In this document: positions 1 through 26,069 of the stretch, one piece after another
Layout of the letters: every line of letters starts with the position of its first letter
How positions within the stretch are numbered: the first letter of the stretch is position 1
DNA from: Candidatus Heimdallarchaeota archaeon B3_Heim
Lineage (GTDB): Archaea; Asgardarchaeota; Heimdallarchaeia; Hodarchaeales; Hodarchaeaceae
Length of the DNA: 32,000 nucleotides
Assembly (NCBI GenBank): GCA_003144275.1
Contig: NJBF01000004.1
Location: 30,001 to 62,000, forward strand
Direction: 5' to 3'
Translations under genes and position numbers: made by a program
The notes under the pieces: model-generated
Seen by the model: only the letters and a program-made list of their open reading frames with translations
Told to the model about the DNA's origin: nothing
The model's database searches: none

Positions 1-1680
1 AATGTACCATTTTCCACATTATCAGTGGTATTTAGGATGTAGGTAGCAAAATTAGAAATATCTGCGTAGCTTTCTCCTAGATAGGATCCTCCAATCATTA
101 ATTTGTAACCACTTTCATTCGCAGGTTCATTATAATCAACAACTACGGTAAATGTATGGTCTACGGTAGATTTATTGCTGAGATATAATGTTAAAGTCCC
201 TGTATCATTATAAAGGTAAATGAAATTCGATCCATAGTCATTTATAAGACTAATTTTTACATCACGAGGACCAGAGTTATCAATTCGCGTAACTAAATCA
301 ACGCTATCCGAATTACCACACATATCAAAGATAGTAATTGTTACTAGATTATCAGAAGCATTTTCCGATTGTAAAATGTCATATGATAATTCAAAGTACC
401 CTGAATACGCACTTGTACCTATTCCAGTTTCCTCGAATTCATCCTCACCTGTAGCATTCTTTAAACCCGCACCAAAGTCTGTAGCATTTACACGTATTGT
501 GAAAGATTCAGCCATTACTTGATCATTACTATAGAAGAGAATCTCTTTTGGTGAATCATAATAAAGAAAATCACTCAACTCATCGCCAATAATATCTAAT
601 ATAACAAGACTCACTGGGGCATTATTATCTAGAAACGTGGGTAAAGAGGTTGAATTAATATTACCACAGTTATCATAGAAGAATATAGCTATTTGATCCC
701 CTGTTACAGGGTCACCAGAATTCACTGTATAATTTAATTCATAAAATCCTGCATAGGTGGTATCAAACACATTTGTTTCACCAAGATCATCCTCACCTGT
801 GGCATTTAATATTCCAGAACCACTATCACTTCCAAAAACTCGTATAGTAAATTGCTCATTTAATGCTGGATTAGTATTGGAGAAGTACAGATTTCCACCT
901 GTATAGTGGAGATATTCACTGTTGGCATGACCATTAACAGCTTCAATTGACAATTCTGTTGGACCATCATTATCAATAGTTAGCGTAATATTATCTGTTG
1001 CACTATTCCCGACCATATCATAACCAGAAACTATTAAGTTACCTGTTTCATTTTCATTTTCATTGATGTAATAACCAAGATTATAGTAAGAATCACTTAC
1101 GTAGATTGTCCCTATAGGAGAATCTCCGAAAGCCGTTGCCCCTGTCGCTCTATCACGTCCACTTTGTCCGATACCATCATCAACTGTAACATTCAAAGTG
1201 AATGACGAATTCATACTTTGATCGTTTGAGTAAAACAGCGTTCCACCACTATAGTGAAGAAGCCAAGAATTTTCTGTTAACGTAGTGATGTTAACTATTG
1301 GTGCACTATCATCTCGGTATATTTCAAAGATAGTGCTTCCGTTGTTACCTACAAGATCTGATATTGTTACTGTATACGAACCATTTGCCGTAGCTGTGGG
1401 AGAGAATGAGTACTGATGATCCCAGATTAATTGATGACTATCCCCAGCTCCTGCAGTAGTATTATACCCTCCATCTGTACTGAAAATATCTGGGAAAAAG
1501 CTAACATTTAGACCTGCATCAAGATTTGCATGAGTTTCTTGACCATCTATTTTAACAGTAAACGCACGGGTTCCTGATCCAACATTAGAGTAATAGATTA
1601 AAGTAGTTGATGCATTATACAGATATTCAGGTAATAAATCTTCTGCTAGACTAAGTATTGAGACTTCTGGATCATAATTA
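1..1680 (-). repeat. About 5 divergent intragenic Ig-like units (~110-116 aa)
   Basis: Units such as SEYLHYTGGNLYFSN...NATGEDD...YDNCGN and SDFLYYDSPKEILFYSN...NATGEDE...FDMCGN; CCTCACCTGT recurs at 443 and 791 (348-nt period). Confidence 0.7.
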
Positions 1681-4600
1681 TCTTTTAAAAACGTAACAGT
1701 AGCTGTTATTTGATTTCCGACATTATCCGTTGAAGTAATTACAATATCAGTTTCTGGGCCAGTCTGTTCAGAATCAGTTCCATGAATAAAGTATGAGGCA
1801 CTCCAGATAGTACCAGGAGTATTATTATTTGGAGAATCACCAAAATGAGATGTGAAATTAACAGTAAGTAACCCAGAGGGAAAATCATTTGATGTTCCGC
1901 TGATATTAATCTGGACAGGAACACCGCCCATATTATCACTAAAGAAAAAATAGTCTCCTGCAGGAGTAATGTAAACAAAAAGACTGTCGGAAATATCCTC
2001 AATAAGGGGAGTGCTTATTGTAGGATCAACATTATCCACAATAAAATCAAAAGTATCCGAAAAATAATTTCCTACTAGATCGATAGCTGTAAATGTAATT
2101 GTGAGGTTATTATACGAAGAATCGGTAGCTGTAATATCATAATCGAATGTCCACGCTTCTAACGAGCCCCCACGTGCAGGATTCCCTCCAAAGTTCGTAT
2201 CATCATCAATGGTATCTAATCCAACGTATGCATCACTAGCTGTTCCTCCTATAATAAATGCATCTGGAGTACCACCCATATTATCTGAATAGTAGCCATA
2301 ACTTGAACTTCCATCATAATACAGGAAAACCGACGATTCACTAGTTGAACTTGAACTAAATTCAATAGTGGGATTTGCATTATCCTCCTTGAATTCAAAC
2401 ATAACTGTATCAGTATTACCCACGTTATCGGTAGCGGTATATGTCACATTGAAAGTATCATAAGAGGAATCAGCCGAAGTTATGTTATAACCAAACGACC
2501 ATATAGTACCCCCACCACCATCTAAAGGATTCTCTCCAAAGTTCGTATCATCAGTTACTGAGGCTATGCCTGAACCCGTATCTGTAACAGATCCTGCGAC
2601 AAAAAATGGATTTGCAGTTCCTCCCATATTATCAGAATAATATCCAAAAGCAGAGCTTGAATCATAATAAAGGTAATCTGAGGATTCAAAAGTAAAACCT
2701 GAATTATGTTCTATAGAAGGACTAACAAAGTCATATCGAAATTCAAATGTGGTCGTTCCGTTTAATAAACCAGAGTTGTAACCAATAAAGGTGACAACAA
2801 ATGTCCCGTAAGATGGCCCATCATTTTGATCAATTTTGTATGTAAAACTCCAGGAGTCATTTACACCACTCAATGACTTGTTAGTAGGATCATTTCCAAA
2901 GGAAGTTGAATCGTTTACTGATATCATTCCCGCTGATGAATTGGCATATCCACTTATCGTGAAATTAATTAGACTTGCTCCCATTTTGTTCCCATAATAG
3001 CCATAAGAAGAGCTACCATCATAGTAGACGAATGGTCCATTAGCAACAATCGAAGTTATCACAACTGTGACATCCTCTGGGAATTCTACAACGGTTATGT
3101 TCCATTCTTGATAATTACCATTATTCGATAGTAAGCGAAGTACAAAATTTCCTTTTAGACTATTGAAATAACTAAAGCCATCAGTAGCATTTAATCCACT
3201 TATGGTTTGATTAAAAGTAGGAGTAAATAGGCTATTAATATCCCAGATTATCTTCCAGAAACTTGAACTTCCAATTGTACTCGAACCGTTATTAAATATA
3301 GTTATGTTCAAGTAATCATCTTTGTCAGATCTTATGTAAAGCTTGTTCTCAGTTTCATTAATTAATGCAAAATATCCACTACTAGCTCTATCCCAATCTA
3401 AATCAAATTTTTCTGGAGAGTTGGTGTCTACAATTACCCAGTCTGCATACGTGGTACCATTGTTTCCCACGTTATCCCTAGCAACCATACTTACTGTATG
3501 ATTAATTTCTGACAGGCTGTACGGTTTTATAAGAATACTCTCCCATGTAACTACAGGTCCATCCAACCCAAACCCAGTATGATTAACTGGTAATCCTGAT
3601 CCTGAACCATCTGTTATTGTACCTGTGACATTAAAATCAACGCTTGTATCATCATAGTAATTAGTATTCGGTGTATACCCCCAACTTGTCGCTGTATCGG
3701 GAATTAATAGGAGAGAGTATCCACTAGGGCCTGTGATATCTCGATCGATCGTTAAAGTCACAATATCATAATTACCTAACAAATCGAATACCGTGATTAT
3801 GATATCACTAGTGTTTGTATCTGAGGATGTGATACCTCCTACTTCAACAAAATAAGTTGGATTAATTCCTTCGGTGGTATTTGCAGAATTAGACCCTAAA
3901 TTATCCGAAGCAATAGCAGAACTTAAATTCACTCCTTCATCAGAAGCATTTATTCCAACTAAGAACGACTGTGGGGAGACCATCCTTTCTCCATACCAAA
4001 GGATTGAACCCACTGAATCCCAATATAGGAAATCAGAGGTTTCAATTACATAGTCAGTTAAATGATAGAAGTCTACTGATGGAACAGTATCATCTAACTT
4101 GATTTGATACTCACCAGTGAATGAAGAGTTGATATGACCTGCCTTATCCGTAATTGTTAGGCTAATAGCATAAGTTCCATCTGTTTTCCCACTGATACTA
4201 AGACTGGAATTGAAAGGTGAAGTTTGCCCTTGTCCAGCTCCTGTTGCAGAGATTCCCCCAGTTACTGATACAGAGATTGAAAACACATTAGTCTCAACGA
4301 AATTTATTTGATAGGTTGCACTGGCTGTAGATCCTTGATCAAACCAATTTGGAGAATAACCTTCATTTGTAAAATCAGCTGTAATCGAAGCAGGCGGAGT
4401 TTCATCTACATAACCGATACCAGATCGTACAGTCCCATTATTCCCCACCTTGTCAATAGGTTTTACATAAAATGTGTAACTTGGCCCACTTCCTAAATCA
4501 CCAGGATAAGTAAATCCAGGAGAGGTATATTCGAAGGAATGATACGAATCAGGCGTGCTATCCCCTTCTTCTACAAAAAAACCATTATTTCCTGATCCAC

Positions 4601-7600
4601 TATCTGTAATCGCAGAGGGAGTAATATTAATTCCAATTCCATCTTTATCCCAATCCTCGACATATGCACTGTCTCCCAAAACGGTTATTGAGGCCATGGA
4701 GGGGTTAGTTGTATCGGCAGTTGTAAAAATTGTAATACGATTCCGAATTCCACACCTATTGACAATATCTATCCATAAATCTCCTTCCGAGGTTCCATTT
4801 GTCCAATAGTTAGAGGATTGATACGGGGCAGAGGAATCATTATAATTACTTACAAGTCCCCAACCTGCTTCGAAAATTACAAACCACCCAATATTTCCAT
4901 CTTGCCAATTAGCTGCTCCATCGGCATCAACGTTTATTGTCCAAGTATCAGGGATTTCTGTGTTGAGATAGAGTGTTCCACTAGTAATATCAGAAGCACT
5001 AACAATATAAACATAGTTGTGAGCTCCTGGAGCCCAAGCTGCGGCTCCAATTACATCGATATCAAAACCACTTGGTGCCGTAACTCCATAATAGATGTCG
5101 ACATTCGAGGCTGTTTCATTAACATTACCCACATTGTCTTCAAACCGATACCAAATTGTATTATTTGAATCAGCAGTAAGCGTACAAGGAACATTGGTAC
5201 CAGAGACGATTGAACTACCATATGATCCAGAATCACTTTTGATTTGAACAGAATAGATACCAGATCCTGACTCCGTAAAGGAAATATCTGCTGTAAAGTC
5301 TGATTGATCGTAAAAGGCTTCGGTTGAACTAATAGAAGAACTATAGGGGAAATATCCGTCTCCGTTACTATCAGTTGTATCTGAATCTACAGTAATAGAA
5401 TCAAGGGAGGGAGCAGTAGAATCTTCAGTAATTGTAATAGTTACTGTCTGAGATCTTCCCGCATAATCAATTATCAAGACGTTAATAGATGTCCCACTAT
5501 CAGTGCTATTGATATCATAATCAATCACTCGTCTATATGGAGAGCTAATATCTTCTTCTTGGGATTCTCCAAAAGCAGCAGGAAACCTAATTTTCCAGAA
5601 ATTTAACTCGGTTCCTGTGGATATTTCAACATCAAATTCAAGGTTGTCGAAACCTCCATTGAAATAAAGTAGAGTATTACTGTCATTGTACAAATATTGT
5701 CCATTACTAATCTCATAAAGTGTTGAGGTATAGCCTATTGGGTTTGTTAAGTCGACTGTTACGCTAATAGAATCAAGGTTAGTTGCATTATTCCCTACAT
5801 TATCCCGAACTTGGACATATATCGTTTGAATGCCTTCAGGTACTCCTGTAACAGTGGATCCTCCAGCTACCCAAGAATCATACAACCCTCCATCGTATTT
5901 ATAAGAGTACGGAAGAGAATTAACTCCACTTCCACCATCATTAGCACTCCCTATAACAATTAAATCAGTAGAATTGTCGTCATAATAATCTGTGTTAGGA
6001 TCAATTCCATTTGCGACTGAATCTGTATCAGCAGTCAAAATCAGATTTAATGATCCTAACGTAGGAGCAGTAGAATCTTCAATAACTGTGATAGTGATTG
6101 TTTGAGATCTCCCTGCATAATCAATTATTGAAATATCAATTGTTGTACCACTATCAGTGTTATCAATATCATAATCGGTTGTTCTTCGATATGGGGAAAT
6201 TGTAAGTTCTTCTTGTAATTCACCAAATGCGGCAGGTTGACGAACCTTCCAAAAGTTGCTTTCAGTACCAGCAATTATCTCAATATCAAATTCTAAATTA
6301 TTTTGAGCTCCATTAAAGTAAATTAATTCCCCTGTTGCATTAAACAAATACTCTGGATTATTGGTTTCATGTAATATTGAGGTATAGCCCACTGGATCAG
6401 TTAAATCAACGATTACTCCAATAGAATCAAGTTGAGTGGCATTATTACCTACATTATCTCGAACTTGTACATAAATTGTACGAGGACCTTCTGGGACAGA
6501 ATTAACTGTTGCACCCCCACTTACCCATGAACTATAATTTCCCCCATCATATTTGTAGGAATACAAGGAGGAGGGAAGACCACTATCACTATCCACTGGT
6601 GTTCCGCTAAGTGTAACATCAACTGAGTCGTCATCATAATATCCAGTATCAGGATTAATTCCATTTGCTCCTGAATTTGTATCAGCGGTCAAGATCAGAT
6701 TTAAAGTTCCCAATATAGGAAGAATTGAATCTTCCACAACTGATATCGTGATATTCTGAATCCTTCCTGCCTTATCAATTATTATGATATCAATCGTCGT
6801 ATCAGTATCAGTATTATTAATCTCATAATCAGTCGTTCTTCGATATGGGGAAACTGTAAGTTCCTCTTGGAATTCTCCAAATGCAGTAGGTTGACGAACT
6901 TTCCAAAAATTTATCTCTGTTCCACCAAAAACCCCTATATCAAAATTAAGGTCACTTTGTGCTCCATTAAAGTAAATTAATGTTCCACTGCCATCCTCAT
7001 GAAGGTATTGAACATTAATAGTCTCATAGATCGAAGTAGTAAATCCAGTAGGATCAGTTAAGTCCACAACTACCCATTGAGAGGTAAGGTCAGGAGCAAT
7101 ATTGCCTACATTATCAATCACACGAACATAGATAGTTCTGTTCCCTTCAGGAACAGAATTAAGTGTTGTTCCGTTACTTACCCATGATCCATATATCCCA
7201 CCATCATATTTGTAGGAAAATCGAATGGTTGGTAGACCACTCCCTCCATCATTAGGAACTCCTGTGACATAAACATCAACAGTTTGATCATCATCAAATT
7301 GTGTAACAGGATCTATCCCATCTCCTCCATCGTCTGTATCTACTAGAATGTCGATACTCAGCGTACCTTGATCAGGAGGAGTCGTATCCTCTATAACATT
7401 TACTGTAATAGTTTGGGTACGTCCAGCATGATCAATGACTAATACATCAATTGTAATTCCAATATCAGTGCTATCAATATTATAATCAATTATTCTTTCG
7501 TAAGGAATGGAAGAATCTTCCTCTTCAGATTCCCCGAAAGCAGAAGGAAAACGTACTTTCCAAAAATTGGTATCAGAGCCTCCACTCACCTTAATATCGA

Positions 7601-10600
7601 ATCCAAGATCATTGTTTGCACCATTAAAGTAAATTAATTCCCCTGTTTCATTATACAAATACTCAAGATTATTGGTTTCGTAAATAGCTGATGTAAATCC
7701 TGTCGGATCAGATAAATCCACTTCTACACCCACAGAAGCAATACTGTCGTTGATATTTCCCACATTATCCCTTATTTGCAAATAGATTGTACGAGATCCT
7801 TCAGGGACATCTGTAAGAGTGTAACCACTACTAACCCAAGCGTTGTATACACCACCATCGTATTTATATGAATAACTCAGGGTAGGAAAACCGCTTCCGG
7901 TATCAGTAGGTACTCCCGAGACGGTTACTTCTGTAGAATTGTCATCATAATACCCCGTATCAGGCTCGATACTATTTCCTACCGAATCGGTATCAGCTGT
8001 TAAGTCAAGAGTTAAGGTACCTAGGCTTGGTGCGGTTGAATCCTCCGTCACAGTGATCGTGATCGTTTGCGTCCGACCAGCTTTATCTATAATAAGAATA
8101 TCAATAGAGATTCCACTATCAGTACTATCGATTTCATAATCCACCTCCCGTCTATATGGAGCGGCGGTATCGTTTTCTGCACCATCATTAAATACGTCAG
8201 GGAAATAAACTCTCCAGAAATTTATTTCTGTTCCCGTAGAAATACTTACATCAAAACTAAGATTATCGATTGCACCATTGAAATAAATTAATGTTCCACT
8301 TGCATTGTACAGATGATCAAAATCATTGGTTTCAAGAATTGTTGATGCAAATCCTGAAGGGTTGGTTAAATCTACTGTTACGAGTTTCCAATCCAATTCG
8401 GCAAAATTCCCTACCCTGTCTCGAACACGAATTGTGATATTCTGATCTACACCTTCTGGTACAGTTAACGTGGTTCCACCGCTAACCCATGATCCATATG
8501 ATCCCCCGATATATTTATATGAATAAGGAGTCGGGTTCACTCCGCTATCGTTTACTGCGCCATCAGATGCTGAACCTGTTACCGTTACACTGACTAAATC
8601 ATTATCGTAATAACCTATTTCTGGATCGATTCCATTAAGAACTGTATCAGTATCGGCTATTATTTCTAGATTTAAATCTCCAAGAGTGGGAGCATTAGAA
8701 TCTTCAATCACATCAACTGATTTGTTACGAACATTTCCTGCATAATCAAGTACTAATACATCGATTCTTGTTCCGATATCTGTACTGTTAACCGTATATA
8801 TTCTCTCGTAATCAGAAGTACTATCATTTACCTGGGATTCACCAAAAGCTTCAGGGAAATATACCATCCAGAAATTTGGATCGGCAGTATTTTCATTTAT
8901 TCGGATCCTGAATTCTGTACCATCTTCATTGCCATTGAAATAGACAGTACTTCCTCCGATGAAATATAAGTAATCGAAATTTACCATCCAGGATAATTGA
9001 GATGAATATCCAATGTCACTGGGGGCAGTAGTATCAACTACAACATTTACTGAATCAAGATCTGTGGCATTATTACCGCAATTATCTCGTACCCGTACAT
9101 ATATTGTACGAGAGCCTTCAGTCACGGATGTTAAAGTATTACTTGTGCCCAACCAAGTGGTTCCATATGATCCAAGATCTGTTCGATACAGATACTTCAA
9201 AGTTTGAGTTGCTCCACTTCCACTATCCGAGGGTGTTCCAGATATAATCACATCTACAGAATCATCATCGTAATATCCTAGTTCTGGATTAAAACCATCT
9301 GCTCCGTCATCTGTGTCCTCAATTAACTGTAAATCCAATGATCCAATTGTTGGATTATCATTATCTCTCATGAACTGGAATATAACTGAATTAGTGTTGT
9401 CAACCAGGTCAGTTACAATTAAAGTAATTGTAATTGTAGCTCCGATACTGGAGTCATCAGAATTGATTTCAAATTCAAACAACCATGAGTTATTAGTACC
9501 GGAATTATCTGGATTTTCTCCAAAGGCAGGAATATCATGAGTAATGGATTTTAAACCTACTCCATCACTTGAATCATTAGCTGTGCCAGTTACATTAAAC
9601 GGGGTTAGCGTAGAACCCATATTATCGGAAAAATAACCAAAAGCATTGATTCCATCATAATATAAGTAATCAGAGTCTTCATTGGTTGCACTCGGATTAT
9701 GTGTTATATAAGGAGCCTCATTATCCCACCCAATATCAGGAAGGGAGGCGGAAATACTCACTTCTGTTCCATATTCATTATTTGCTCCAATAATTGCTGA
9801 ACCAACAGTGATGTTATCACGTAATTGAACTGTCCCTAAAGCGGGATTTTCCTCCACATCATTTCGAATCAAAACTGATGTTGGTCCATAAATCTCAGAA
9901 TTTCCTATATATCCAACATTGACTTCACCAGTGTAGGGATTTCCTGTATAATCCCATTCAGCAGTAATAGTAATAGTAAAGGCATCACCGGAAGCATCAT
10001 TATCCTCCCAATAACGTGTACCATTATAAGCATAGGCGGATATGGTGATTGCTGTAATTTCTACTCGATCGACAGCTACACTAGTATTAGTGTTTGTGAA
10101 TGATTGGATTAACCCATCTCCCGCTAAATCAACTCTCGGATAGTACGTATAATTACTAATCGAAACTTCTGAATTTGCAGATACATTGAATGAAGAAACA
10201 CTATCTACTAAACTAGTGACATTTTGTGGACCTGACTCGACCCGATAAATTGAAACTTGATCGATCTGGGAATCTGGTACAGGAATAATAGTTCCATTAT
10301 AGTAAATATTCCCAGTAAAATAGAGATCAGTTGAATAATTCGGATTAATAAAATGATCATCAACCGTGAAAGAAGAGACTTGTATCTCGTGATTGAAGTT
10401 GTATGTTGTCGCTCCTGAGTCTCCCAAATTATTTGTTCCTGAAGTATCATTGGTAAATGCTCCTAATTGAATATTTACTCCATTCGGAAAATCCCAATCT
10501 GTTAAAATGCGAAAGTTGACCGTTAATGACTTCCCTGTACGTGTGGGGGATGGATTTGCTGGATCAATTATGAAGTGATCACCGTTGTCAGTGATTTCTG

Positions 10601-12788
10601 AAAAACTGTCAGTCTGATTATCATACCCAAATGTATATTCAAACGAATTTACAGTAAAGTTCATAATAACCCAATCAGTAGGGGCAATACTCTCAGTTAT
10701 TTTGACCTGGAAGTTATAATATTGCCTCTGTGCATGAATAACTCCCGTATCAGCATTTGTTACTAAGACATCAGTTATTTCTGGTGATTCTTCTTCTTCT
10801 AAATCATGAATAACTGCAGGAGCGTTAGTTACTGTCTCCATTAATGCCCACATGCCTATACGCATACCTGTACCACTTGCAGAGAAAAATAAATGACCAC
10901 TAGAGGGAAGTCCCCATTCAGTGCTTGAAACATCAGGCGTTCCTGGTTCTAAATTCTCAGCTAACCAAGTTTTCCCTTTTAAGATATTTCCTGTTATCTC
11001 ATATCTGTACATATACCATTTTGTTGTACTAAAGCCACCTGGATCATTGTCGAAAGGATAATCTGTCCCATTCCATCTTCGAAGATTCAGATTTGTGGTT
11101 GTATGTTCCAAAAAGATATAGTCATTTCCACTATCAGATCTTAGAGCAATTGCTGATTGAGTCCCTGAATTCGTTGTTTTCCCTAGAACAAGAATCTGAC
11201 TATTGGCAGTTATTGTACCTGTTCGATTTAGATCAACCCAACTACCTGAATTTAATAAGGCAATATCATCATTAGTCCACCATCCAAATTCTGTAGGTTT
11301 ACTTGTATCAGGGGTCGCAATCCATCCAGTGTTTGGATTATATCCACTCAATGATTGGCTACTGAAATCATCATAATCTAAGAATACTTCCGAGGCGTTT
11401 GATGGAGGATTTCCAGGATTTCCTGTTTTTACCCCATAGTATACCGCATAGTTAGAATCGGATCCAGAAGTGGAAATTGCACTTTGCAACCTAAAGTAAA
11501 TTTGTGTTCCTACTGAATTATTATATAAGACCGTACGGTTCAGCTCTATCCATTGTGTTCCAGTATAATAAGCCACACGAAGATCCTTGGCATCAGCACG
11601 CATCTTAGAGGCGGAAACGAGAGTTTCTGTTATTAAATCTAGCTGTACCGTATAATCGGTGCTGAGTGCTGAATCAGCAGTAATGGTTACCTGTTTCATG
11701 TACTTATAACTCGTATTCCACCAGGAGGGAGTACCAGAAATATCCTTAAAGAGATAGTTAATTTTAGGGACAGAATAATCCGATATTACATCGATTGGTG
11801 GGGGAGAATCTCCATCATCAGAAACTGAAGAAAAATCTTCCACTTCCGTGAAAATCAAAGGCTCATCAGGTATCGTAGGGTAAATTACTCGATTCCCAGT
11901 TCCTGAAGAAGCAACTAATTCGAATGCAGCAGAGAGATCCTTTACTTTTCTGAGGGAGTAATAGCCATTCCCATAATCTTTTCGCTCATATACAATATTA
12001 AAAAATGTGAAACGTGTAACAGTACTATCCGTTTCAGGGAGGGATTTAAGAAGCGACTGTACACGACTAATAACTGTTATAGGTACAAATGCTAGCACGA
12101 AGATAAGTACTAGTATAAGAAAACCATTAAATCGACGAGGTAAGAAAAAGGAAATCCCGCATAATAACGAAAAAATCGATCCAATTACTAAATTCGTCTG
12201 AGATGAAATTGGTGGGGCAGATTGCTGGAACTTTATTTGTTCAAATCCAAGACTTTGGATAACAGATGATCCGTTCCACGCAGAAAATGACACCTCGAAA
12301 TATTCAAGATCATTGATTGCAGTACCGTTCAATTGAAATGTAATGGTGGTTCCAAAGTACAATTCTACGGCATTAATCACCTGAACTGAGCCATTCTCAG
12401 CATCAAGGATAGCTAGATCAAAGGGATAGATACTTACGGTAATATTTCTAAGAAATCCCCACAATATCCGAGTAGTATAATCAGGGGAAAAAGTCATTCG
12501 CATCCGTATTGATAAAGAATCAAAGGGGTCATTTGGTGACGGAAAAATCAATCGTAACTTGTAAGCAGGTTGCTCACTAATGATTGAATGAGCACGGAGA
12601 CCAGAGTCTAGAAGGGAACTAGTATTACTGAGTCCCTGAGTGATTTCACCATCATCATTAAACGCAAAATAATTGGTTAAAGGATAAATAGTATTATCAG
12701 GTCGGGCTACTGTCAATGTAGAGGACAGCAGTAGAAATAACAGGGCTAGAAGCCCGTAAGAGAGATGTTTACTCACTTTTCTTTTCAT
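1..12788 (-). CDS. Giant secreted/membrane-anchored multi-Ig-repeat surface protein (>4262 aa, 3' end outside window); DUF2341 + ConA-like domain + tandem Ig-like repeats
   Basis: Manual translation from ATG 12788 (MKRKVSKHLSYGLLALLFLLLSSTLTVA-RPDN..., preceded by SD-like GAGGGT) gives a stop-free frame down to codon 5-3 (...NTTDNVENGT). Frame checked at 11720-11723 (WW) and at the left edge. Its absence from the ORF track fits an ORF with no stop in the window. Recurrent D-x-x-G-N strand ends, D/T/S/G-rich, many N-x-S/T sequons. Confidence 0.93.
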   Translation of the reverse strand, partial: MKRKVSKHLSYGLLALLFLLLSSTLTVARPDNTIYPLTNYFAFNDDGEITQGLSNTSSLLDSGLRAHSIISEQPAYKLRLIFPSPNDPFDSLSIRMRMTFSPDYTTRILWGFLRNITVSIYPFDLAILDAENGSVQVINAVELYFGTTITFQLNGTAINDLEYFEVSFSAWNGSSVIQSLGFEQIKFQQSAPPISSQTNLVIGSIFSLLCGISFFLPRRFNGFLILVLIFVLAFVPITVISRVQSLLKSLPETDSTVTRFTFFNIVYERKDYGNGYYSLRKVKDLSAAFELVASSGTGNRVIYPTIPDEPLIFTEVEDFSSVSDDGDSPPPIDVISDYSVPKINYLFKDISGTPSWWNTSYKYMKQVTITADSALSTDYTVQLDLITETLVSASKMRADAKDLRVAYYTGTQWIELNRTVLYNNSVGTQIYFRLQSAISTSGSDSNYAVYYGVKTGNPGNPPSNASEVFLDYDDFSSQSLSGYNPNTGWIATPDTSKPTEFGWWTNDDIALLNSGSWVDLNRTGTITANSQILVLGKTTNSGTQSAIALRSDSGNDYIFLEHTTTNLNLRRWNGTDYPFDNDPGGFSTTKWYMYRYEITGNILKGKTWLAENLEPGTPDVSSTEWGLPSSGHLFFSASGTGMRIGMWALMETVTNAPAVIHDLEEEESPEITDVLVTNADTGVIHAQRQYYNFQVKITESIAPTDWVIMNFTVNSFEYTFGYDNQTDSFSEITDNGDHFIIDPANPSPTRTGKSLTVNFRILTDWDFPNGVNIQLGAFTNDTSGTNNLGDSGATTYNFNHEIQVSSFTVDDHFINPNYSTDLYFTGNIYYNGTIIPVPDSQIDQVSIYRVESGPQNVTSLVDSVSSFNVSANSEVSISNYTYYPRVDLAGDGLIQSFTNTNTSVAVDRVEITAITISAYAYNGTRYWEDNDASGDAFTITITAEWDYTGNPYTGEVNVGYIGNSEIYGPTSVLIRNDVEENPALGTVQLRDNITVGSAIIGANNEYGTEVSISASLPDIGWDNEAPYITHNPSATNEDSDYLYYDGINAFGYFSDNMGSTLTPFNVTGTANDSSDGVGLKSITHDIPAFGENPDNSGTNNSWLFEFEINSDDSSIGATITITLIVTDLVDNTNSVIFQFMRDNDNPTIGSLDLQLIEDTDDGADGFNPELGYYDDDSVDVIISGTPSDSGSGATQTLKYLYRTDLGSYGTTWLGTSNTLTSVTEGSRTIYVRVRDNCGNNATDLDSVNVVVDTTAPSDIGYSSQLSWMVNFDYLYFIGGSTVYFNGNEDGTEFRIRINENTADPNFWMVYFPEAFGESQVNDSTSDYERIYTVNSTDIGTRIDVLVLDYAGNVRNKSVDVIEDSNAPTLGDLNLEIIADTDTVLNGIDPEIGYYDNDLVSVTVTGSASDGAVNDSGVNPTPYSYKYIGGSYGSWVSGGTTLTVPEGVDQNITIRVRDRVGNFAELDWKLVTVDLTNPSGFASTILETNDFDHLYNASGTLIYFNGAIDNLSFDVSISTGTEINFWRVYFPDVFNDGAENDTAAPYRREVDYEIDSTDSGISIDILIIDKAGRTQTITITVTEDSTAPSLGTLTLDLTADTDSVGNSIEPDTGYYDDNSTEVTVSGVPTDTGSGFPTLSYSYKYDGGVYNAWVSSGYTLTDVPEGSRTIYLQIRDNVGNINDSIASVGVEVDLSDPTGFTSAIYETNNLEYLYNETGELIYFNGANNDLGFDIKVSGGSDTNFWKVRFPSAFGESEEEDSSIPYERIIDYNIDSTDIGITIDVLVIDHAGRTQTITVNVIEDTTPPDQGTLSIDILVDTDDGGDGIDPVTQFDDDQTVDVYVTGVPNDGGSGLPTIRFSYKYDGGIYGSWVSNGTTLNSVPEGNRTIYVRVIDNVGNIAPDLTSQWVVVDLTDPTGFTTSIYETINVQYLHEDGSGTLIYFNGAQSDLNFDIGVFGGTEINFWKVRQPTAFGEFQEELTVSPYRRTTDYEINNTDTDTTIDIIIIDKAGRIQNITISVVEDSILPILGTLNLILTADTNSGANGINPDTGYYDDDSVDVTLSGTPVDSDSGLPSSLYSYKYDGGNYSSWVSGGATVNSVPEGPRTIYVQVRDNVGNNATQLDSIGVIVDLTDPVGYTSILHETNNPEYLFNATGELIYFNGAQNNLEFDIEIIAGTESNFWKVRQPAAFGELQEELTISPYRRTTDYDIDNTDSGTTIDISIIDYAGRSQTITITVIEDSTAPTLGSLNLILTADTDSVANGIDPNTDYYDDNSTDLIVIGSANDGGSGVNSLPYSYKYDGGLYDSWVAGGSTVTGVPEGIQTIYVQVRDNVGNNATNLDSISVTVDLTNPIGYTSTLYEISNGQYLYNDSNTLLYFNGGFDNLEFDVEISTGTELNFWKIRFPAAFGESQEEDISSPYRRVIDYDINSTDSGTSINVLIIDYAGRSQTVTITITEDSTAPSLDSITVDSDTTDSNGDGYFPYSSSISSTEAFYDQSDFTADISFTESGSGIYSVQIKSDSGSYGSSIVSGTNVPCTLTADSNNTIWYRFEDNVGNVNETASNVDIYYGVTAPSGFDIDVIGAAAWAPGAHNYVYIVSASDITSGTLYLNTEIPDTWTINVDADGAANWQDGNIGWFVIFEAGWGLVSNYNDSSAPYQSSNYWTNGTSEGDLWIDIVNRCGIRNRITIFTTADTTNPSMASITVLGDSAYVEDWDKDGIGINITPSAITDSGSGNNGFFVEEGDSTPDSYHSFEYTSPGFTYPGDLGSGPSYTFYVKPIDKVGNNGTVRSGIGYVDETPPASITADFTNEGYSPNWFDQGSTASATYQINFVETNVFSISVSVTGGISATGAGQGQTSPFNSSLSISGKTDGTYAISLTITDKAGHINSSFTGEYQIKLDDTVPSVDFYHLTDYVIETSDFLYWDSVGSILWYGERMVSPQSFLVGINASDEGVNLSSAIASDNLGSNSANTTEGINPTYFVEVGGITSSDTNTSDIIITVFDLLGNYDIVTLTIDRDITGPSGYSLLLIPDTATSWGYTPNTNYYDDTSVDFNVTGTITDGSGSGLPVNHTGFGLDGPVVTWESILIKPYSLSEINHTVSMVARDNVGNNGTTYADWVIVDTNSPEKFDLDWDRASSGYFALINETENKLYIRSDKDDYLNITIFNNGSSTIGSSSFWKIIWDINSLFTPTFNQTISGLNATDGFSYFNSLKGNFVLRLLSNNGNYQEWNITVVEFPEDVTVVITSIVANGPFVYYDGSSSYGYYGNKMGASLINFTISGYANSSAGMISVNDSTSFGNDPTNKSLSGVNDSWSFTYKIDQNDGPSYGTFVVTFIGYNSGLLNGTTTFEFRYDFVSPSIEHNSGFTFESSDYLYYDSSSAFGYYSDNMGGTANPFFVAGSVTDTGSGIASVTDDTNFGENPLDGGGGTIWSFGYNITSADSSYDTFNVTYTATDNVGNTDTVMFEFKEDNANPTIEFSSSSTSESSVFLYYDGSSSYGYYSDNMGGTPDAFIIGGTASDAYVGLDTIDDDTNFGGNPARGGSLEAWTFDYDITATDSSYNNLTITFTAIDLVGNYFSDTFDFIVDNVDPTISTPLIEDISDSLFVYITPAGDYFFFSDNMGGVPVQINISGTSNDFPSGLLTVNFTSHFGDSPNNNTPGTIWSASYFIHGTDSEQTGPETDIVITSTDNVGNQITATVTFLKDNYDPEVSILSLAEDLLPEYLYNASTTLIYYSNVGSGTRAFTVKIDGQETHANLDAGLNVSFFPDIFSTDGGYNTTAGAGDSHQLIWDHQYSFSPTATANGSYTVTISDLVGNNGSTIFEIYRDDSAPIVNITTLTENSWLLHYSGGTLFYSNDQSMNSSFTLNVTVDDGIGQSGRDRATGATAFGDSPIGTIYVSDSYYNLGYYINENENETGNLIVSGYDMVGNSATDNITLTIDNDGPTELSIEAVNGHANSEYLHYTGGNLYFSNTNPALNEQFTIRVFGSDSGSGILNATGEDDLGETNVFDTTYAGFYELNYTVNSGDPVTGDQIAIFFYDNCGNINSTSLPTFLDNNAPVSLVILDIIGDELSDFLYYDSPKEILFYSNDQVMAESFTIRVNATDFGAGLKNATGEDEFEETGIGTSAYSGYFELSYDILQSENASDNLVTITIFDMCGNSDSVDLVTRIDNSGPRDVKISLINDYGSNFIYLYNDTGTLTLYLSNKSTVDHTFTVVVDYNEPANESGYKLMIGGSYLGESYADISNFATYILNTTDNVENGT
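1690..3040 (-). repeat. Four tandem ~116-aa 'YYSDNMGG' Ig-like units (a further copy at ~9365-9720)
   Basis: Motif xLYYDGSSxYGYYSDNMGG...FGxNP...WSFxYxI...TDxVGN recurs with a ~348-357 nt period (CCCATATTATC near 1927, 2275, 2624). Confidence 0.85.
5428..9370 (-). repeat. Six tandem ~654-660 nt (~219 aa) two-domain intragenic repeats
   Basis: Unit boundaries (RDNDNP/EDSxAP) near 9365, 8700, 8040, 7384, 6727, 6073, 5419. Domain A: EDSTAPTLG..ADTD..GYYDD..YSYKYDGGxYxSWV..PEGxRTIYVQVRDNVGN. Domain B: DLTDPxG..ETNNxEYL..LIYFNG..NFWKVRxPxAFGE..PYRR..IIDxAGR. Confidence 0.92.
11430..11730 (-). other. DUF2341-like domain within the giant ORF
   Basis: SWWNTSYKYMKQVTI...DYTVQL...KMRADAKDLRV...IEL...IYFRL...YAVYYG followed by SNASEVFLDYDDFS matches the WWN..Y...ITI / D..DLRF / IYYG / FDDF pattern of DUF2341 as I recall it; not HMM-verified. 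Confidence 0.75.
12070..12192 (-). other. Two-helix transmembrane hairpin (aa ~200-240) of the giant ORF
   Basis: LVIGSIFSLLCGISFFL - PRRFNG - FLILVLIFVLAFVPITVI: two hydrophobic runs with a short basic loop (positive-inside rule). Confidence 0.8.
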
Positions 12789-12962
12789 AGATATTACCCT
12801 CAATCAGATACCAATTCCTCAGTTGGAGGAACGAATGATGATAGGTGATTTCATCAAGATCGTAACGGCATATTGCCTAGTCATGTTTGAAATTTATCTG
12901 GGATTTTGATTTTGGTGATATTCTAGAATTACTGAAAGCAGAACAGCTCTCAATAAACCGAC

Positions 12963-12970
12963 ATTATAAA
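12963..12970 (-). promoter_or_regulatory. Candidate archaeal TATA box (TTTATAAT) for the giant gene
   Basis: TTTATAAT on the minus strand, preceded by an A-rich tract, ~175 nt upstream of ATG 12788; motif match only. Confidence 0.3.
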
Positions 12971-13083
12971 GCACTATTGGGTTTTTTAGTTTTTAACGAT
13001 TACTGTATTTAATTAGAGTTTTTGTCACTCTAAAGAAAGAGAATATCGTCTTACGTGTAAGAAAAATTAGTTCTAGGGAAATT

Positions 13084-13115
13084 GAATTTTTCTGCTGGAT
13101 CAGTAGGAAAAATTC
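13084..13115 (-). terminator. Terminator-like hairpin just after the 3049-aa gene
   Basis: GAATTTTTC (13084-13092) and GAAAAATTC (13107-13115) form a perfect 9-bp inverted repeat with additional inner pairing TGCTG/CAGTA, 9-40 nt downstream of the TAG at 13124. Confidence 0.5.
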
Positions 13116-13123
13116 TCCTTACC

Positions 13124-13198
13124 CTAGTGTCGTCGTCGTAGGAAGACTACCATCCCTATTAGTCCAATTAAAAGGAAGGGAAGTTCAAATCCAGGGGT
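13124..13198 (-). other. PGF-CTERM-type archaeosortase sorting signal
   Basis: T-P-G-F-E, hydrophobic helix, then RRRH and stop: the tripartite architecture of PGF-CTERM. Confidence 0.88.
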
Positions 13199-16100
13199 AT
13201 TAGTAGGAATTACATCTGGAATAGTATCTGGTATATCGATATTGATAGTGACTTTTCGGTTTGCTACAGTGAAATAGTTATCAGATATATCTTCACTGGT
13301 CAAGATTTGACTATCATACACCGTTATCGCTTCAATTTTAATTTCATAGACAAAAGAGGTCACTAAAAAGGTGGTATCCCAGAGGTAGCTGGTATCATTA
13401 AGATTCTGAGCCACAAGTACCCAGGTATCGCTTTGATTGATACTATAGTAGAGATTGAAGGTCGTATTTAATTTCCAGGGATTGTCAAGGGCCCACGAAA
13501 TTGTCCAATAATCGGAGGCAATGACTTCACCACCATTCGGACTAACTAATGTCACTTTGATATCCACAGGCACATCATACACCTCAAACATGGTTAAAGC
13601 AATTCCTACATTATTAGATGCATCAATGACCGTGATATTTAACAGGTGGAATCCAACGTCTAATGGAGGAATTAAACCATTGTATGGATCAATAGCCAAT
13701 ACGCTCCCATTCAGATATACCGTTACTGTATAATTTGCTAATTCTAAGATCTGTGTATTAAGTGCAATAGAATCAGTTTCTGGATATCGAATATCAGATA
13801 CTGGGGAGGATATAAAGATAATCGGTGCTGTTGTATCTCGTACGAAGAGAGTAATTTCCGCGAGTCCCACATTATTTGAGGAATCAGTCACTTTCACCTG
13901 TAACAAATGAGTACCCACAGGGACATTAGAGAGAATGCCACTATTGGAGATTATATTCCCATCCAGAAGAACTTCAACTGTAGCGCTACTTAAATCGGTA
14001 TACTGATAAGTATAGAGGATATTAGCACCAAATTCAAACGTAGTTTCATTTTCAGGGGTATTGATAGTAACCACAGGTTGAATGGTATCTTCTACCACTA
14101 GAATAATCTCATCGAACCCAAGATTGCTAAATTCATCAGTAGCTTCGACTGTAAGAATGTAAATACCGACTTCAAGATTTGCGAGTACTTTTAGATCACT
14201 GATTACAACACCATCTAATTTTACCTCTATAGACATAGGACTAAGATCGGTGGCTGTATACCCGTAGAAGACAAGATCGCCAAATTCAAAGAATGAATTA
14301 TTAGAGGGATCTGTGATTGAAACAACAGGTAATATCGTATCTTGCACAAAGAATGTAATTGTATCTGAACCAAGGTTGTTGTAAATGTCCGTACCTTCAA
14401 TATATAAGACATATGTACCAACGGCTAGCCCAGAAAGCAGACCTGTATCAGGTATTGGCGCACCATTTAATTGAACGATAACTGATGTTGGACTCAGATC
14501 AGATACTGTGAAAGTATAGCTGACATCGGTCCCAAACTCAAAGAAGGTAGAAGTTCCAGGGTTCGTGATTTCGACAACAGGTGCAGTTGTATCCACAAGG
14601 AAGAAGAAAGTCGTTTCTGCTGAACCAACATTCCCAAAGGCATCGGTAACTTCGATGTTGAGAGTATAGGTTCCAACAGCAAGTCCAATTAACAGTCCTG
14701 TATCTGGTATAGGAGCACTATTGAGGCTCACTACTACTGAGGTGCCACTTAAATCGAAAAATGTATATGTATAGCCGACATCAGAACCAAATTCAAAGAT
14801 AGATGCATTCACGGGGGAAGTGATGGTAACTACAGGACTTGTAGTATCCACTACATACAATATAATCTCCATAAGTCCAACATTGCTGTAAATGTCAGTA
14901 GCTTCAACAGACAGAGTATAAGTACCCACTGCAAGTCCAGAAAGCAAACCACTATCAGGAATAACGGCACTGTTGAGTTCTACTACAACTGAGGTGCCAC
15001 TTAAATCGAATACAGAATAAGTATACGAGACATCGGTTCCAAATTCGAATATAGAGGCATTAGTAGGGGATATAATTGTAACCAAAGGATTAGTTGTATC
15101 AACCACGAAGAGTGTGATTTCAGCAACTCCTACATTGTTGGATGTATCAGTGGCTTCAACGTTCAATATGTATGTACCTACTGACAGACCACTAAGAATG
15201 CCACTGTCGGGGATAGGAGCCCCATTAAGGCGTATAATTATCGTTGTACCACTTAGATCATCGACTGTGTAAGTATAGGCGACATCATCTCCGAACTCAA
15301 AGTATGAAGCATTCACTGGATCGACAATAATTACGACAGGTGCAGTTGTATCCACCACGAAGAAAGTTATTTCGTCTGAACCAACATTATTGTGTGCATC
15401 AGTCGCTTCAATATTCAATATGTAAGTACCCACTGCTAAACTTGCCAGCACTCCACTATCGGGAAGAGGAGCACCATTTAGTCTTACGACAACTGTAGTA
15501 CCACTTAAATCAGTTATAGTGTAAGCGTATGAAACATCGGATCCAAACTCGAAAATTGAGGCATTATTTGGAGAGGAGAGGGTAACAACTGGATTAATTG
15601 TATCTTGAATATAGAAGATTATTTCATCAGTTCCAACATTGCCATAAGTATCAGTTGCTTCAATAGTGAGGGTGTAAGTACCAACTGCAAGTCCAATTAA
15701 GAGGCCTGTATCAGGGAGAGGTGCACTATTGAGGCTAACAACTATTGAAATACCACTCAAATCGAAAACAGTGTAGCTATAAGAGACATCATTACCAAAT
15801 TCAAATGTAGTGCCATTTACAGGTGCAGATATAGATACAACGGGAGATGTAGTGTCAACCAAGAAAAAGAAAGTAGTTTCTGCCATGCCTACATTTCCAT
15901 ACGCATCTGTTGCTTCGATGTTGAGAGTATAGGTTCCCACTGCAAGACCACTTAACAAACCTGAATCAGGAATGGGGGCACTATTGAGGCTTACCACGAC
16001 TGTAGTGCCACTCAAATCATTAACAGTATACGTATAGCTGACATCTGAACCAAATTCAAAAATTGAGGCATTTACGGGGGAAGTTATTGTGACCACTGGA

Positions 16101-19100
16101 CTAGTAGTATCAGTTACAAAGAATGTTACCGAGTCAGATCCAACATTACTATATGTATCAGTAGCTTGAATATAAAGGGTATAGGTTCCTACTGATAATC
16201 CAGTTAATAATCCATTATCAGGAATGGGGGCGCCATTAAGCTCCAACTCTGCTGTTGTACCACTTAAGTCACTAATTGTATAAGTAAATGGTACATTTAA
16301 GCCAAATTCGTAAATTGAACTATTTGCTGGGGAAGTAATACTTACTACTGGTGCTGTTGTATCAGCAATAAAGAAAGTGATTTCATCAGAATTAAAGTTG
16401 CTGTACACATCAGTGGCTTCAACTGTCATAACATAAGTCCCTACAACGAGACTGGATAGAATTCCTGTATCTGGAACAGGAGCGCCATTTATTCTGACTA
16501 CAACTGAGGTGCCACTCAAATCCGTTACAGTATAAGTATAGGGAACGCCAGAACCAAATTCAAATGTAGAACTATTACTTGGCGAGTCAATCGTGACAAC
16601 AGGAGCTGTTGTATCCACTACAAAGAGATTAATCTCAGTAAAACCATTATTTCCATAATCGTCAACCGCTTCAACTCGTAAGACATAAGAACCCACTGCA
16701 AGACCTGAGAGCACTCCACTATCAGGGATAGGAGCTCCATTCAACTTAACCCCGATATTTGTGCCACTTAAATCAAATACTGCATAAGTATAGGGTATCT
16801 CTGAGCCAAATTCGAATATAGACGCGTTTGAAGGATCAGTAATCGTCAATGTAGGTGCAGTTGTATCCTGAATGATAATTGTTACTTCATCGCTTCCTGG
16901 ATTGCCGTAAGTATCAATAGCTTCAACTGAAAGAACGTATACACCAACGGGTAACCCTGAAAGGACTCCACTGTCAGGAATAGGGGCGCTATTCAATCTT
17001 ATTGTTACCGTCGTACCACTCAAATCATCCACAGTATAAGTATAAACGATATTTGAGCCAAATTCAACGGTTGAGGGTTCGTTTGGAGATGTAATTACAA
17101 CTACTGGTGATGTTGTATCTTGAATAAAGAACGTTATCTCATCTGATCCAAGATTACTGTATGTATCAGTGGCTTCAACTGTAAGGGTATATGTACCCAC
17201 AGCAAGACTTGAAAGTAAACCACTATCAGGAATAGGCGCTCCATTGAGTTTGACAACGATAGTAGTGCTGCTCAAATCACTTACAGTATAGGTGTAAGAC
17301 ACATCCAAACCAAATTCAAATACTGAACCATTTGCAGGCGTAGTAATTGCTACACTAGGAAAAGTCGTATCAACCATGAAGAAGGTAACTTCATCGTCTC
17401 CCACATTACTATATGTATCCGTAGCTTCTACTGTTAGAACGTATGTACCAACAGCAAGTCCAGATAATAACCCACTATCAGGAATGGGGGCGCCATTGAG
17501 CTTCACTACAACTGTCATTCCGCTCAAATCACTTACAGTATAGGTGTAAGAAACATCAGACCCGAATTCAAAGGTTGAGGCGTTTGCAGGAGAGGTGATT
17601 GTTACAACAGGGGATATTGTATCATCTAAATAAAAGAAAACAGTTTCTGCAACGCCTACATTACCATAAGAATCAGTAGCTTCAACATTAAGAGTATATG
17701 TTCCTACTGAAAGGCCTGTAAGAAGACCAGTATCTGGAATGAGGGCACCATTCAATCTTACTTCAACAGATGTGCCACTTAAATCGAATACCGTATAGGA
17801 ATAGCTAACATCATTCCCAAATTCGAACGTAGTGGCATTAACAGGAGAAGTTATCGTGACAAATGGAATTGTGGTATCCTCGACATAAAATATTATTTCA
17901 TCAGATCCCACATTGGTATAGGTATCGGTAGCCTCGACGTTTAGAATATAGGTACCTACAGCTAAACCAGAAAGCGAGCCACTATCAGGTATGGGAGCGC
18001 CGTTAAGTCTCACCACAATTGTGGTTCCACTCAAATCATCTACAGTATAGGTATAGCCAACATCCGATCCAAATTCAAATACAGTAGCATTAATAGGGGA
18101 CGTAATCACAATAACTGGGTCTGTAGTATCTTGAATGAAGAATATTATCTCATCAAAGCCCACATTACTATAGCTATCTGTTGCTTCAACATTTAGAATA
18201 TAGGTACCGACTGCAAGACTAGAAAGTAATCCTGAGTCGGGAATGGGGGCACCATTGAGTTTTACCACAACACTAGTACTACTTAAATCGTCAACAGTAT
18301 GTGTATAGCTGACATCAGAACCAAATTCGAAAGTAGTTGCATTAATGGGTGAGGAGATCGTGACAACTGGAGAAGTAGTATCAGTTATAAAGAAGACTAT
18401 TTCTTTCGACCCAATGTTGTTAAATAAATCCGTAGCTTCAACAGTTAGGGTATAAGTACCGACTGCTAGGCTAGATAGTAAACCGCTATCAGGAACTGAA
18501 GCACCATTGAGTTTGACAACGATTATAGTGCTGCTCAGATCTGTTACTGTGTAGGTATAACTGACATCATTTCCTAACTCAAATGTAGAACTATTTGATG
18601 GGGTGGTGATTATTACTAATGGCGATGTAGTATCGTGGACAGTGAATATTATCTCGTCAGATCCAACATTACTGTAGGTATCAGTAGCTTCGACATTTAA
18701 TGTATAGGTACCGACTGCTAGGCTAGACAATACTCCACTATCAGGGATCGGAGATCCATTGAGCCGAACCACAATTGTTGTTCCACTTAAATCATCAACT
18801 GTATATGTATAACTTACATCGGTTCCATATTCGTGGAATGAAGCATTTAATGGTAATGATATTGCTACAACTGGTGCAGTGCTATCCTGAACGTAGAACA
18901 CAATTTCCTCGGATCCTATATTACTATAGGAATCAGTAGCTTCAACATTTAGAAAATACGTACCAACAGCGAGTCCTGAAAGAGTACCACTATCTGGTAT
19001 TGGGGCACCATTTAATCTGATAACAACGGTGATCCCACTCAAATCAGTGACAGTATAAGTGTAAGTGAGGTCAGTTCCAAACTCAAATTGTGAAGCATTA

Positions 19101-23606: not shown

Positions 23607-23690
23607 TTGATTTCACAAGAGGTAATGCTATTCGAGACTGGACTCATGAGATATTAAAGATTTACCTGATTTCCCTTTAATCAATACTAT

Positions 23691-23710
23691 CTCGCTATAA
23701 TTGTAGTGAG
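23691..23710 (+). promoter_or_regulatory. 20-nt imperfect palindrome/hairpin CTCGCTATAATTGTAGTGAG between thiR and the kinase gene
   Basis: 16/20 symmetric as DNA; as + strand RNA, an 8-bp stem whose two irregular pairs are both G-U. Confidence 0.45.
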
Positions 23711-24650: not shown

Positions 24651-24690
24651 TTATTGTTAGATACGAAGTCTTGGTTTTGCAAAATGCTTC

Positions 24691-24722
24691 ATAGGTCAGC
24701 TATAACAGAGACCTATATTTTT
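24691..24722 (+). terminator. Inverted repeat ATAGGTC-N12-GACCTAT followed by ATTTTT (terminator or operator)
   Basis: Perfect 7-bp arms at 24691-24697 and 24710-24716; T-tract at 24718-24722; lies between the kinase gene and thiB. Confidence 0.4.
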
Positions 24723-24743
24723 AAGAGATTAAGCAATCGGTAC

Positions 24744-24750: not shown

Positions 24751-24778
24751 GACACAGAATATATATTTAGGCGATTTT

Positions 24779-26026: not shown

Positions 26027-26069
26027 TCGTCAGTTCTTATCTTTTGAATGGTATCCGGTTTGATTCCTA

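Follow-up and report, generated by a model that had tools for sequence, protein, structure and literature searches.

Does the left end of a 32,000-nucleotide stretch of DNA from Candidatus Heimdallarchaeota archaeon B3_Heim encode one giant protein, and if so, what might such a protein do for the cell? The stretch, called the window here, corresponds to positions 30001-62000 of contig NJBF01000004.1 (C87) in a metagenome-assembled draft genome of 3.95 Mb in 103 contigs. A sequence-only reading of the window had proposed a hidden minus-strand frame, running from an ATG at 12788 to the window edge and coding for a secreted mosaic of beta-sandwich modules. Our analysis showed that this frame is a real gene, which encodes a giant membrane-anchored surface protein of a Hodarchaeales (Asgard) archaeon. 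We consider it probable, on balance, that the gene belongs to a conserved three-gene operon of paralogous surface proteins whose cytoplasmic longin tails pair and act on a Rag/Arf-family GTPase after contact outside the cell.

The giant open reading frame

When open-ended open reading frames (ORFs) were allowed, a minus-strand ORF of 4,267 codons was found at 3..12803, with its 3' end open. It opens with a TTG and reaches its first ATG, at 12788, in codon 6. Its translation is free of stops, and no in-frame stop was found when the reverse complement of 3..12788 was translated. Over the same 12.8 kb there are 0 stops in the giant frame and 221-545 in the other five frames, which excludes a chance origin. 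On the contig, the frame runs on to a stop at C87:16338, so that it has 8,821 codons if counted from the TTG or 8,816 if counted from the ATG, without any N. The window thus holds the 5' 12.8 kb of the gene (1..12788, minus strand, codons 1-4262), and the stop-free frame up to the window edge, proposed earlier, was borne out, as was the suggestion that its true size might lie far beyond it. The frame had also been described as missed by the ORF track. The closed-end listing over 1..12788 indeed contains just 11 short ORFs (60-116 amino acids (aa)), and the giant frame is absent because ORFs running off the window are unlisted; the omission reflects a window-edge rule and no biological oddity.

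The longest exact DNA repeat within the 26.5-kb gene is 27 nt, and tandem DNA copies inside it are 63-81% identical. Since the exact repeats are so short and the tandem copies so diverged, repeat collapse is not expected. Read searches added little: no run was listed for a 9.9-kb query, and a 1.95-kb query returned six runs, each with at most 0.10 of the sampled words. Read-derived contigs on the giant gene were short pieces, mostly those of relatives, and none extended across the whole gene. One contig of 233 nt from a metatranscriptome library aligned to window 12503-12734 and differed from it in 8 places; it belongs to a relative and is no proof of transcription.

A conserved gene trio with longin tails

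The giant gene is the first of three genes, whose products have 8,816, 1,537 and 993 aa. The giant gene shares 4 nt at its stop with the start of the 1,537-aa gene, which in turn shares 1 nt with the 993-aa gene; the downstream genes are thus predicted to be translationally coupled, and this tight spacing is kept in relatives. The two downstream genes and their tails are located outside the window and were not foreseen by the sequence-only reading. All three proteins are predicted to consist of an N-terminal signal sequence, a sequon-rich ectodomain, one C-terminal transmembrane (TM) helix and a cytoplasmic longin domain of about 190 aa, and the tails are pairwise 22-39% identical. A membrane-proximal stalk of about 700 aa is common to the giant and the 1,537-aa protein; residues 7923-8815 of the giant, numbered from the TTG here and throughout, align with residues 595-1524 of the latter (E 4e-53). 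The last ~370 aa of the stalk are also common to the 993-aa and 1,537-aa proteins, with residues 1138-1514 of the 1,537-aa protein aligning with 591-958 of the 993-aa protein (E 3e-15). Specific to the giant are a small N-terminal ectodomain with a TM hairpin and an extension of about 7,600 aa with 46 modules. Given the paralogy of the trio, the giant can therefore be regarded as a "short" receptor lengthened at its N-terminus by ~7,600 aa.

The independent assembly GCA_048938105.1 contains a colinear orthologue of 8,856/8,857 aa (41-49% identity) followed by 1,533-aa and 1,025-aa genes, and there, as here, the trio is followed by genes for lysyl-tRNA synthetase and an NTP-transferase. In a third species the order is ThiN, a 10,431-aa orthologue, a 1,536-aa gene and a third gene cut by the contig end. 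Another assembly, GCA_048881705.1, carries a contig-truncated copy of the giant and then 1,546-aa and 986-aa genes. Intact colinear frames of 8.8-10.4 thousand codons are therefore present in three species. A search with the tail profile found the domain in 20 of the 21 genomes of the genus and pieces of the trio in 13 of those; all three tails were on one contig in 8 listed genomes, and in 5 more there were two tails or a set cut by the contig end. Since complete orthologues exist in two further species and trio pieces in 13 genomes, misassembly is very unlikely. All database copies that were looked up bear the label "hypothetical protein", and contig ends truncate many of them; the closest come from metagenome-assembled genomes of Candidatus Hodarchaeales, Hodarchaeota, Kariarchaeaceae and Heimdallarchaeota. 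In one genome (G062:C10:124852-125427), the tail match of an orthologous 10,069-aa open frame contained one in-frame TGA, for which sequencing error, a pseudogene or recoding are possible. In other Heimdallarchaeia families, the tail domain was seen on proteins of about 1,600 aa with a smaller architecture, sometimes three in tandem (1,612-1,632 aa, e.g. G014:C160:4735-15273).

Four proteins of this genome carry the ~190-aa C-terminal tail domain: the giant, the products of the two downstream genes, and a 3,075-aa protein on contig C49. A profile built from these four tails found only 181 representatives among 1.84 billion proteins, nearly always at the extreme C-terminus, in host proteins of 280-5,809 aa. 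An AlphaFold2 (AF2) model of the giant tail, based on an alignment of 68 sequences, had a predicted local distance difference test score (pLDDT) of 93 and the longin topology bb-a-bbb-aa (strands E34-43 and E47-54, helix H56-76, strands E85-94, E97-109 and E117-126, helices H133-155 and H160-190). Longin structures filled the top of the VIA-align list. The best match was the Lokiarchaeota longin 8yqg (Z 14.4, root-mean-square deviation (rmsd) 3.0, 140 aligned residues), and the model also matched 6nzd_H from the FLCN-FNIP2-Rag-Ragulator complex (Z 12.0, rmsd 2.6, 134 aligned), 7o2w_A from C9orf72-SMCR8 (Z 11.2), Lst4 (Z 10.5), 8adl_S from the SEA complex (Z 9.3) and 8fw5_B from GATOR1 (Z 8.9). 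The longins of TRAPP, VAMP7, Sec22 and the adaptors (AP sigma) reached Z of 8.5 at most; DENND1A was found at Z 10.1, and the Mon1-Ccz1 and BLOC-3 longins matched too. These values suggest that the modelled tail is nearer to chains of longin complexes of the GTPase-activating protein (GAP) type than to SNARE, adaptor or TRAPP longins, with gaps of a few Z units. Foldseek matched the tail to a chain of the active FLCN GAP complex (8dhb) and to GATOR1/SEAC chains with a probability of 1.00. In the ESM-Atlas, a search by shape led to Heimdallarchaeota clusters with PF11704 Folliculin, and also to SMCR8, uDENN FLCN/SMCR8-type, C9orf72 and NPR2 clusters. As modelled, the tail is a folliculin-type longin by fold and by its motifs, and not a member of the Pfam family.

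Two motifs were well conserved in the 68 aligned tails. Every one of them has G47, at least 90% have P48, and this GP pair opens strand 2, which starts at residue 47 of the tail model. R114, within the sequence PEARGG in the beta4-beta5 loop, is also conserved in at least 90%. The GP motif has been described as specific to the GAP-type longins FLCN, NPRL2, SMCR8 and C9orf72, and as absent from FNIP2, NPRL3 and other longins (PMC12290439). It adjoins the arginine finger and is, together with the Arg, common to Heimdallarchaeial longins (PMC12290439). On this basis the tails fall into two types. Type A tails, with GP and Arg, are those of the giant, the 1,537-aa protein and the C49 paralogue. 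Type B tails, those of the 993-aa protein and all its orthologues, are without GP and without the conserved Arg, and have a 13-residue insert. By analogy, this split would mirror the pairing of a catalytic with a non-catalytic chain in the eukaryotic complexes.

Genes for Rag-type GTPases were found next to type A receptors elsewhere. After the gene of the C49 paralogue come two members of the Gtr1/RagA family (735 and 311 aa), and a long and a short Rag-type gene flank each of two other type A receptors, which are from unrelated assemblies. In the C49 case, the long Rag-type GTPase (L004:14295-16502) has ~540 residues past its G domain that gave no Pfam match, and the long forms adjoining the other receptors have 738 and 703 aa. 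In this genome, six or more strong Rag-family genes were counted. The contig of the trio itself holds a Rag-family cluster at C87:80702-88754 (L015:4702-12754), about 38-46 kb from the start of the giant gene; it consists of a 303-aa gene on the minus strand and then co-directional genes of 334, 314, 271 and 310 aa, three of which match Gtr1_RagA.

Protein anatomy and genomic neighborhood

The predicted topology is that of a very long extracellular chain which is held in the membrane near both ends, with the tail inside. Hydropathy indicated a signal peptide or signal anchor at residues 6-33 (12705..12788, on the minus strand like all features of the giant), with MKRKVSKH followed by a hydrophobic stretch to TLTVA, and this segment is kept in orthologues. 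It is followed by a small N-terminal ectodomain delimited by hydropathy and composition (residues 34-202, 12198..12704), which has 5 N-X-S/T sequons, and by a predicted TM hairpin (residues 203-250, 12048..12197), in which two hydrophobic helices are joined by the short basic loop PRRFNG. The two-helix pattern was likewise found in five orthologues, and the hairpin is predicted to bring the chain back outside. The main ectodomain would then extend over residues ~253-8610, about 8,350 aa, before the C-terminal TM helix at residues 8611-8632, the basic residues after it and the predicted cytoplasmic tail of ~190 aa (residues 8633-8821). Beyond the left window edge, the gene encodes the remaining modules, a unique membrane-proximal region of 1,700 aa, the TM helix (C87:16908-16973) and the longin tail (C87:16341-16907).

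The ectodomain is acidic, with 13.7% D+E and 3.4% K+R, and contains 208 N-X-S/T sequons compared to 133 ± 10 in shuffled sequences (z = 7.5), in agreement with the acidic, sequon-rich product proposed from the window. The tail is charge-balanced (K+R and D+E both 13.8%), as expected for a cytoplasmic domain. The description of the protein as secreted held for the signal peptide and not for the rest, because the hairpin, the C-terminal TM helix and the cytoplasmic domain, as judged by hydropathy, are not those of a free secreted protein. Neither Heimdall-CTERM nor PGF-CTERM, as C-terminal sorting signals, was found at the end of the giant, where there is a TM helix and a folded 190-aa domain instead. 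The tail, the two downstream paralogues and the first 1,000 residues of the giant gave no NCBIfam match. In the membrane-near head, residues 404-486 (11346..11594) resemble DUF2341 below the Pfam threshold (E 0.0057), and the same match was seen in 3 of 5 orthologues (best E 2.9e-4). The AF2 model of head residues 350-700 from a 5-sequence alignment had a mean pLDDT of 48, too low for use, so that a ConA/LamG-like domain following the DUF2341-like segment is at most a candidate. A BLASTP comparison of the head with paralogue P0043, which bears Laminin_G_3, gave no match.

An iterated hidden Markov model (HMM) tied together 46 modules of ~113 aa over residues 1023-6895. Of these, 25 are in the window (residues 1023-4267, 3..9737), and the alignment follows the pattern DNxxP linker ... 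YLYY ... YYSNDQxM ... DxVGN. The modules form three sub-types which can be aligned on the DNxxP linker and the DxVGN end. Seven tandem ~218-aa double modules, A+B, occupy residues 1141-2538 (5190..9383), and their B modules contain a Y_Y_Y-type motif, as found by repeat analysis, Pfam and the HMM. Since the orthologues have 48 and 56 modules, the size of the protein varies with module number.

Family assignment of the modules was less clear. Pfam Y_Y_Y matched the window half at 28.1 bits, just above the cut-off of 26.6, and the distal half of the giant had no Pfam match. When 32 modules were searched singly against Pfam, Y_Y_Y was found in 3 and DUF7743 in 3, and no family was secure; the module profile gave no secure family among PDB sequences either. 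Precomputed matches of orthologous fragments include Big_13, Big_3_3, Y_Y_Y and Filamin, and the language-model look-alikes are immunoglobulin-like (Ig-like) families, which we treat as a lead only. The modules are likely Ig-like beta-sandwiches, as judged from these sequence matches. Hence the proposed mosaic of roughly 30 or more beta-sandwich modules stood as regards repeated modules of ~100 aa, with 25 in the window part and 46 in all, and its beta-sandwich fold is still a matter of inference.

In the intergenic region upstream of the giant gene (12789..13123), an SD-like (Shine-Dalgarno-like) GAGGG is present at 12797-12801, 9 nt before the ATG, a TATA-like TTTATAAT at 12963-12970, and oligo-T runs after the upstream gene; all three are readings of the letters only. 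The upstream gene (13124..22273, minus strand) encodes a 3,049-aa protein with 34 near-perfectly spaced Ig-like repeats of 84 aa, which match Pfam Y_Y_Y, Big_3_3 and Big_7. Its end matches Heimdall-CTERM (NF045529) at 26.9 bits, with a cut-off of 24, and PGF-CTERM was rejected for it for that reason. Two other species lack this gene at the syntenic position, having ThiN immediately before the giant gene, and it therefore looks like a lineage-specific insertion. Because of this absence, and because a 320-bp spacer parts it from the giant gene, it was also rejected as a member of the operon. Further upstream, a ThiN-domain protein, a kinase of the APH/choline-kinase fold and an ABC importer (solute-binding protein, permease and ATPase) form a compact module at window 22698-28914. 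ThiN was found upstream of the giant gene in all three species, and lysyl-tRNA synthetase downstream in the two genomes read that far.

Giant genes on aloposons, mobile elements of Heimdallarchaeia, have a downstream tRNA integration site and four upstream genes including a MinD/ParA-like ATPase (PMC8813620). A search of 62 kb around the locus found no tRNA gene, and none of the seven upstream ORFs that were scanned is ParA-like. With host genes also conserved on its flanks, the locus is unlikely to be an aloposon-type mobile element.

Interpretation and relation to known systems

We favor a receptor operon in which the three proteins would be made together and their tails would pair at the inner membrane face, as a longin dimer of the FLCN-FNIP type. 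The dimer may bind one of the Rag/Arf-family GTPases of the cell, probably as its GAP. On the other side of the membrane, the very long ectodomain might contact a partner cell, a surface or a glycan, and outside contact would thereby be coupled to a GTPase switch inside. Tail pairing, action on a GTPase and contact sensing by the ectodomain are all steps that we infer.

Several results weigh against this reading. The operon has no GTPase gene nearer than about 38 kb, and it is therefore through the paralogues that it can be linked to Rag GTPases. Pfam Folliculin (PF11704) scored the tail at 13.8 bits (E 0.051), below the cut-off of 23.3, and the tail profiles matched only helical-bundle noise, and no FLCN, among PDB sequences; the assignment to the folliculin class is therefore structural and motif-based. 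No DENN domain follows the tail longin, as the protein ends after two helices, unlike FLCN, FNIP, SMCR8 and C9orf72. R114 is no more than a putative counterpart of the arginine finger (FLCN R164, SMCR8 R147, NPRL2 R78). On the ectodomain side, hhalign of the module profile with the 34 Ig repeats of the neighboring protein gave a probability of 0.4%, i.e. no detectable relation. A structural role of the tail, in clustering or anchoring, fits the data almost as well.

In its full form, that main rival makes the trio a purely structural coat, spacer or cell-cell tether, whose tails merely oligomerise or anchor the proteins, e.g. to the cytoskeleton, and regulate no GTPase. It would agree with an operon that has no GTPase gene in or beside it, with the giant Ig-like surface proteins already known from archaea and Asgard genomes (PMC8813620, PMC11573180, PMC4378361), and with longins being general dimerisation modules, the top structural match being a dimeric Lokiarchaeota longin. 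However, GP and Arg are near-invariant across the 181 representatives and the whole archaeal class, which is hard to explain for a mere anchor, and they are motifs specific to GAP-type longins (PMC12290439). Type A receptors also adjoin Rag-type GTPase pairs at three independent loci. We therefore regard a purely structural role as doubtful, if still worth serious attention. The tails could also act on GTPases in some other way, as a docking platform, an effector or an exchange factor like the DENN, Mon1-Ccz1 and TRAPP longins. Most longin complexes are exchange factors (PMC12290439), and DENND1A (Z 10.1), Mon1-Ccz1, BLOC-3 and TRAPP longins matched the tail model too; yet among eukaryotic structures the model fits best to Lst4 and to chains of GAP-type complexes (FLCN-FNIP2, C9orf72-SMCR8 and SEA/GATOR1), and longins outside the GAP type reportedly lack the GP motif (PMC12290439). 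This makes a non-GAP action improbable in our judgment.

Least credible is that the locus is an artefact, whether a repeat-driven misassembly or chimera, a decaying pseudogene, or the cargo of an aloposon-type element. Such doubts would arise naturally for a gene that is repetitive at the protein level in a metagenome-assembled draft of 103 contigs, from a group in which tandem giant genes on mobile elements exist (PMC8813620). They are met by the 27-nt limit on exact repeats, by the colinear intact frames in three species, with ThiN upstream in all three and lysyl-tRNA synthetase downstream in two, and by the missing tRNA and ParA-like genes in the regions scanned, and we give an artefact very little weight.

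At eukaryotic lysosomes, FLCN/SMCR8/NPRL2-type longins form the catalytic cores of the GAPs for Rag and Arf GTPases. In Hodarchaeales, the same longin domain, with GP and Arg, is the predicted cytoplasmic tail of surface receptors, and the operon also encodes a candidate partner tail without these motifs. The trio thus gives a concrete, testable picture of what longins may have done before endomembranes existed. Should the tails be inert anchors, the trio would simply represent archaeal adhesins of very large size that are, unusually, anchored twice in the membrane. More tentatively, and we think this rather unlikely as it stands, the trio may be a membrane-embedded prokaryotic forerunner, predating lysosomes, of the longin-heterodimer GAPs FLCN-FNIP, NPRL2-NPRL3 and SMCR8-C9orf72. 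Type A and type B tails would pair under the plasma membrane and switch Rag/Arf GTPases according to what an ectodomain hundreds of nanometres long touches, and the closest archaeal relatives of eukaryotes would then possess a receptor for outside-in GTPase signalling. Archaeal proteins of at least 5,000 aa are rare (PMC11573180), and at 8.8-10.4 thousand residues the giant family is in the size class of halomucin. With its copies labelled and truncated as described above, the family is invisible to routine annotation.

Among known systems, the aloposons Otus and Ephialtes of Heimdallarchaeum (PMC8813620) resemble the locus in having tandem very large genes in Heimdall-group Asgard archaea. 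They differ in genomic context, as no tRNA site or upstream ParA-like gene was found for the trio in the DNA scanned, and its chromosomal neighbors are kept in three species. Giant repeat surface proteins, such as halomucin (9,159 aa), the Ig-repeat adhesins of the SiiE/Bap/LapA type and the archaeal "huge proteins" with an N-terminal Laminin_G_3, are similar to the giant in having a signal peptide and thousands of residues of tandem ~100-aa modules. They are likewise acidic and sequon-rich, as suits archaeal N-glycosylation, and the 10,431-aa orthologue exceeds halomucin in length. In contrast to these proteins, which are released, sortase-linked or retained by type 1 secretion, the giant has predicted TM helices near both ends and a folded, predicted cytoplasmic domain of a signalling type, and its modules are without a secure Pfam family.

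The archaeal longins most comparable to the tail, which may belong to the same family, are the 15 Heimdallarchaeial "FLCN/SMCR8-type longin" sequences (PMC12290439, Traffic 2025), in which GP and Arg have the same arrangement as in the giant tail. The word "transmembrane" is absent from that paper, and giant ectodomains, a three-gene operon or a motif-less partner tail are not described in it. By structure, the best match is the Lokiarchaeota Roadblock-Longin protein (8yqg, Z 14.4).

SMCR8-C9orf72 (CSW) and NPRL2-NPRL3 (GATOR1/SEACIT) contain longins of the same structural class as the tail and follow the same logic of one catalytic and one non-catalytic longin. However, they are large soluble lysosomal assemblies with DENN and other domains, whereas a minimal 190-aa domain on a membrane anchor is predicted here. 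Folliculin-FNIP2 (yeast Lst7-Lst4) is a GAP for RagC/D, and several likenesses connect the trio with it: the longin fold of the tail (Z 12.0 to 6nzd_H, Z 10.5 to Lst4), the GP at the start of strand 2 and the conserved Arg, a co-encoded second longin without both motifs, as in FNIP2, and tail paralogues that adjoin Rag-type GTPase pairs. The setting differs, since FLCN is soluble and is recruited to lysosomes, whereas the longin of the giant forms the DENN-less tail of a giant surface protein.

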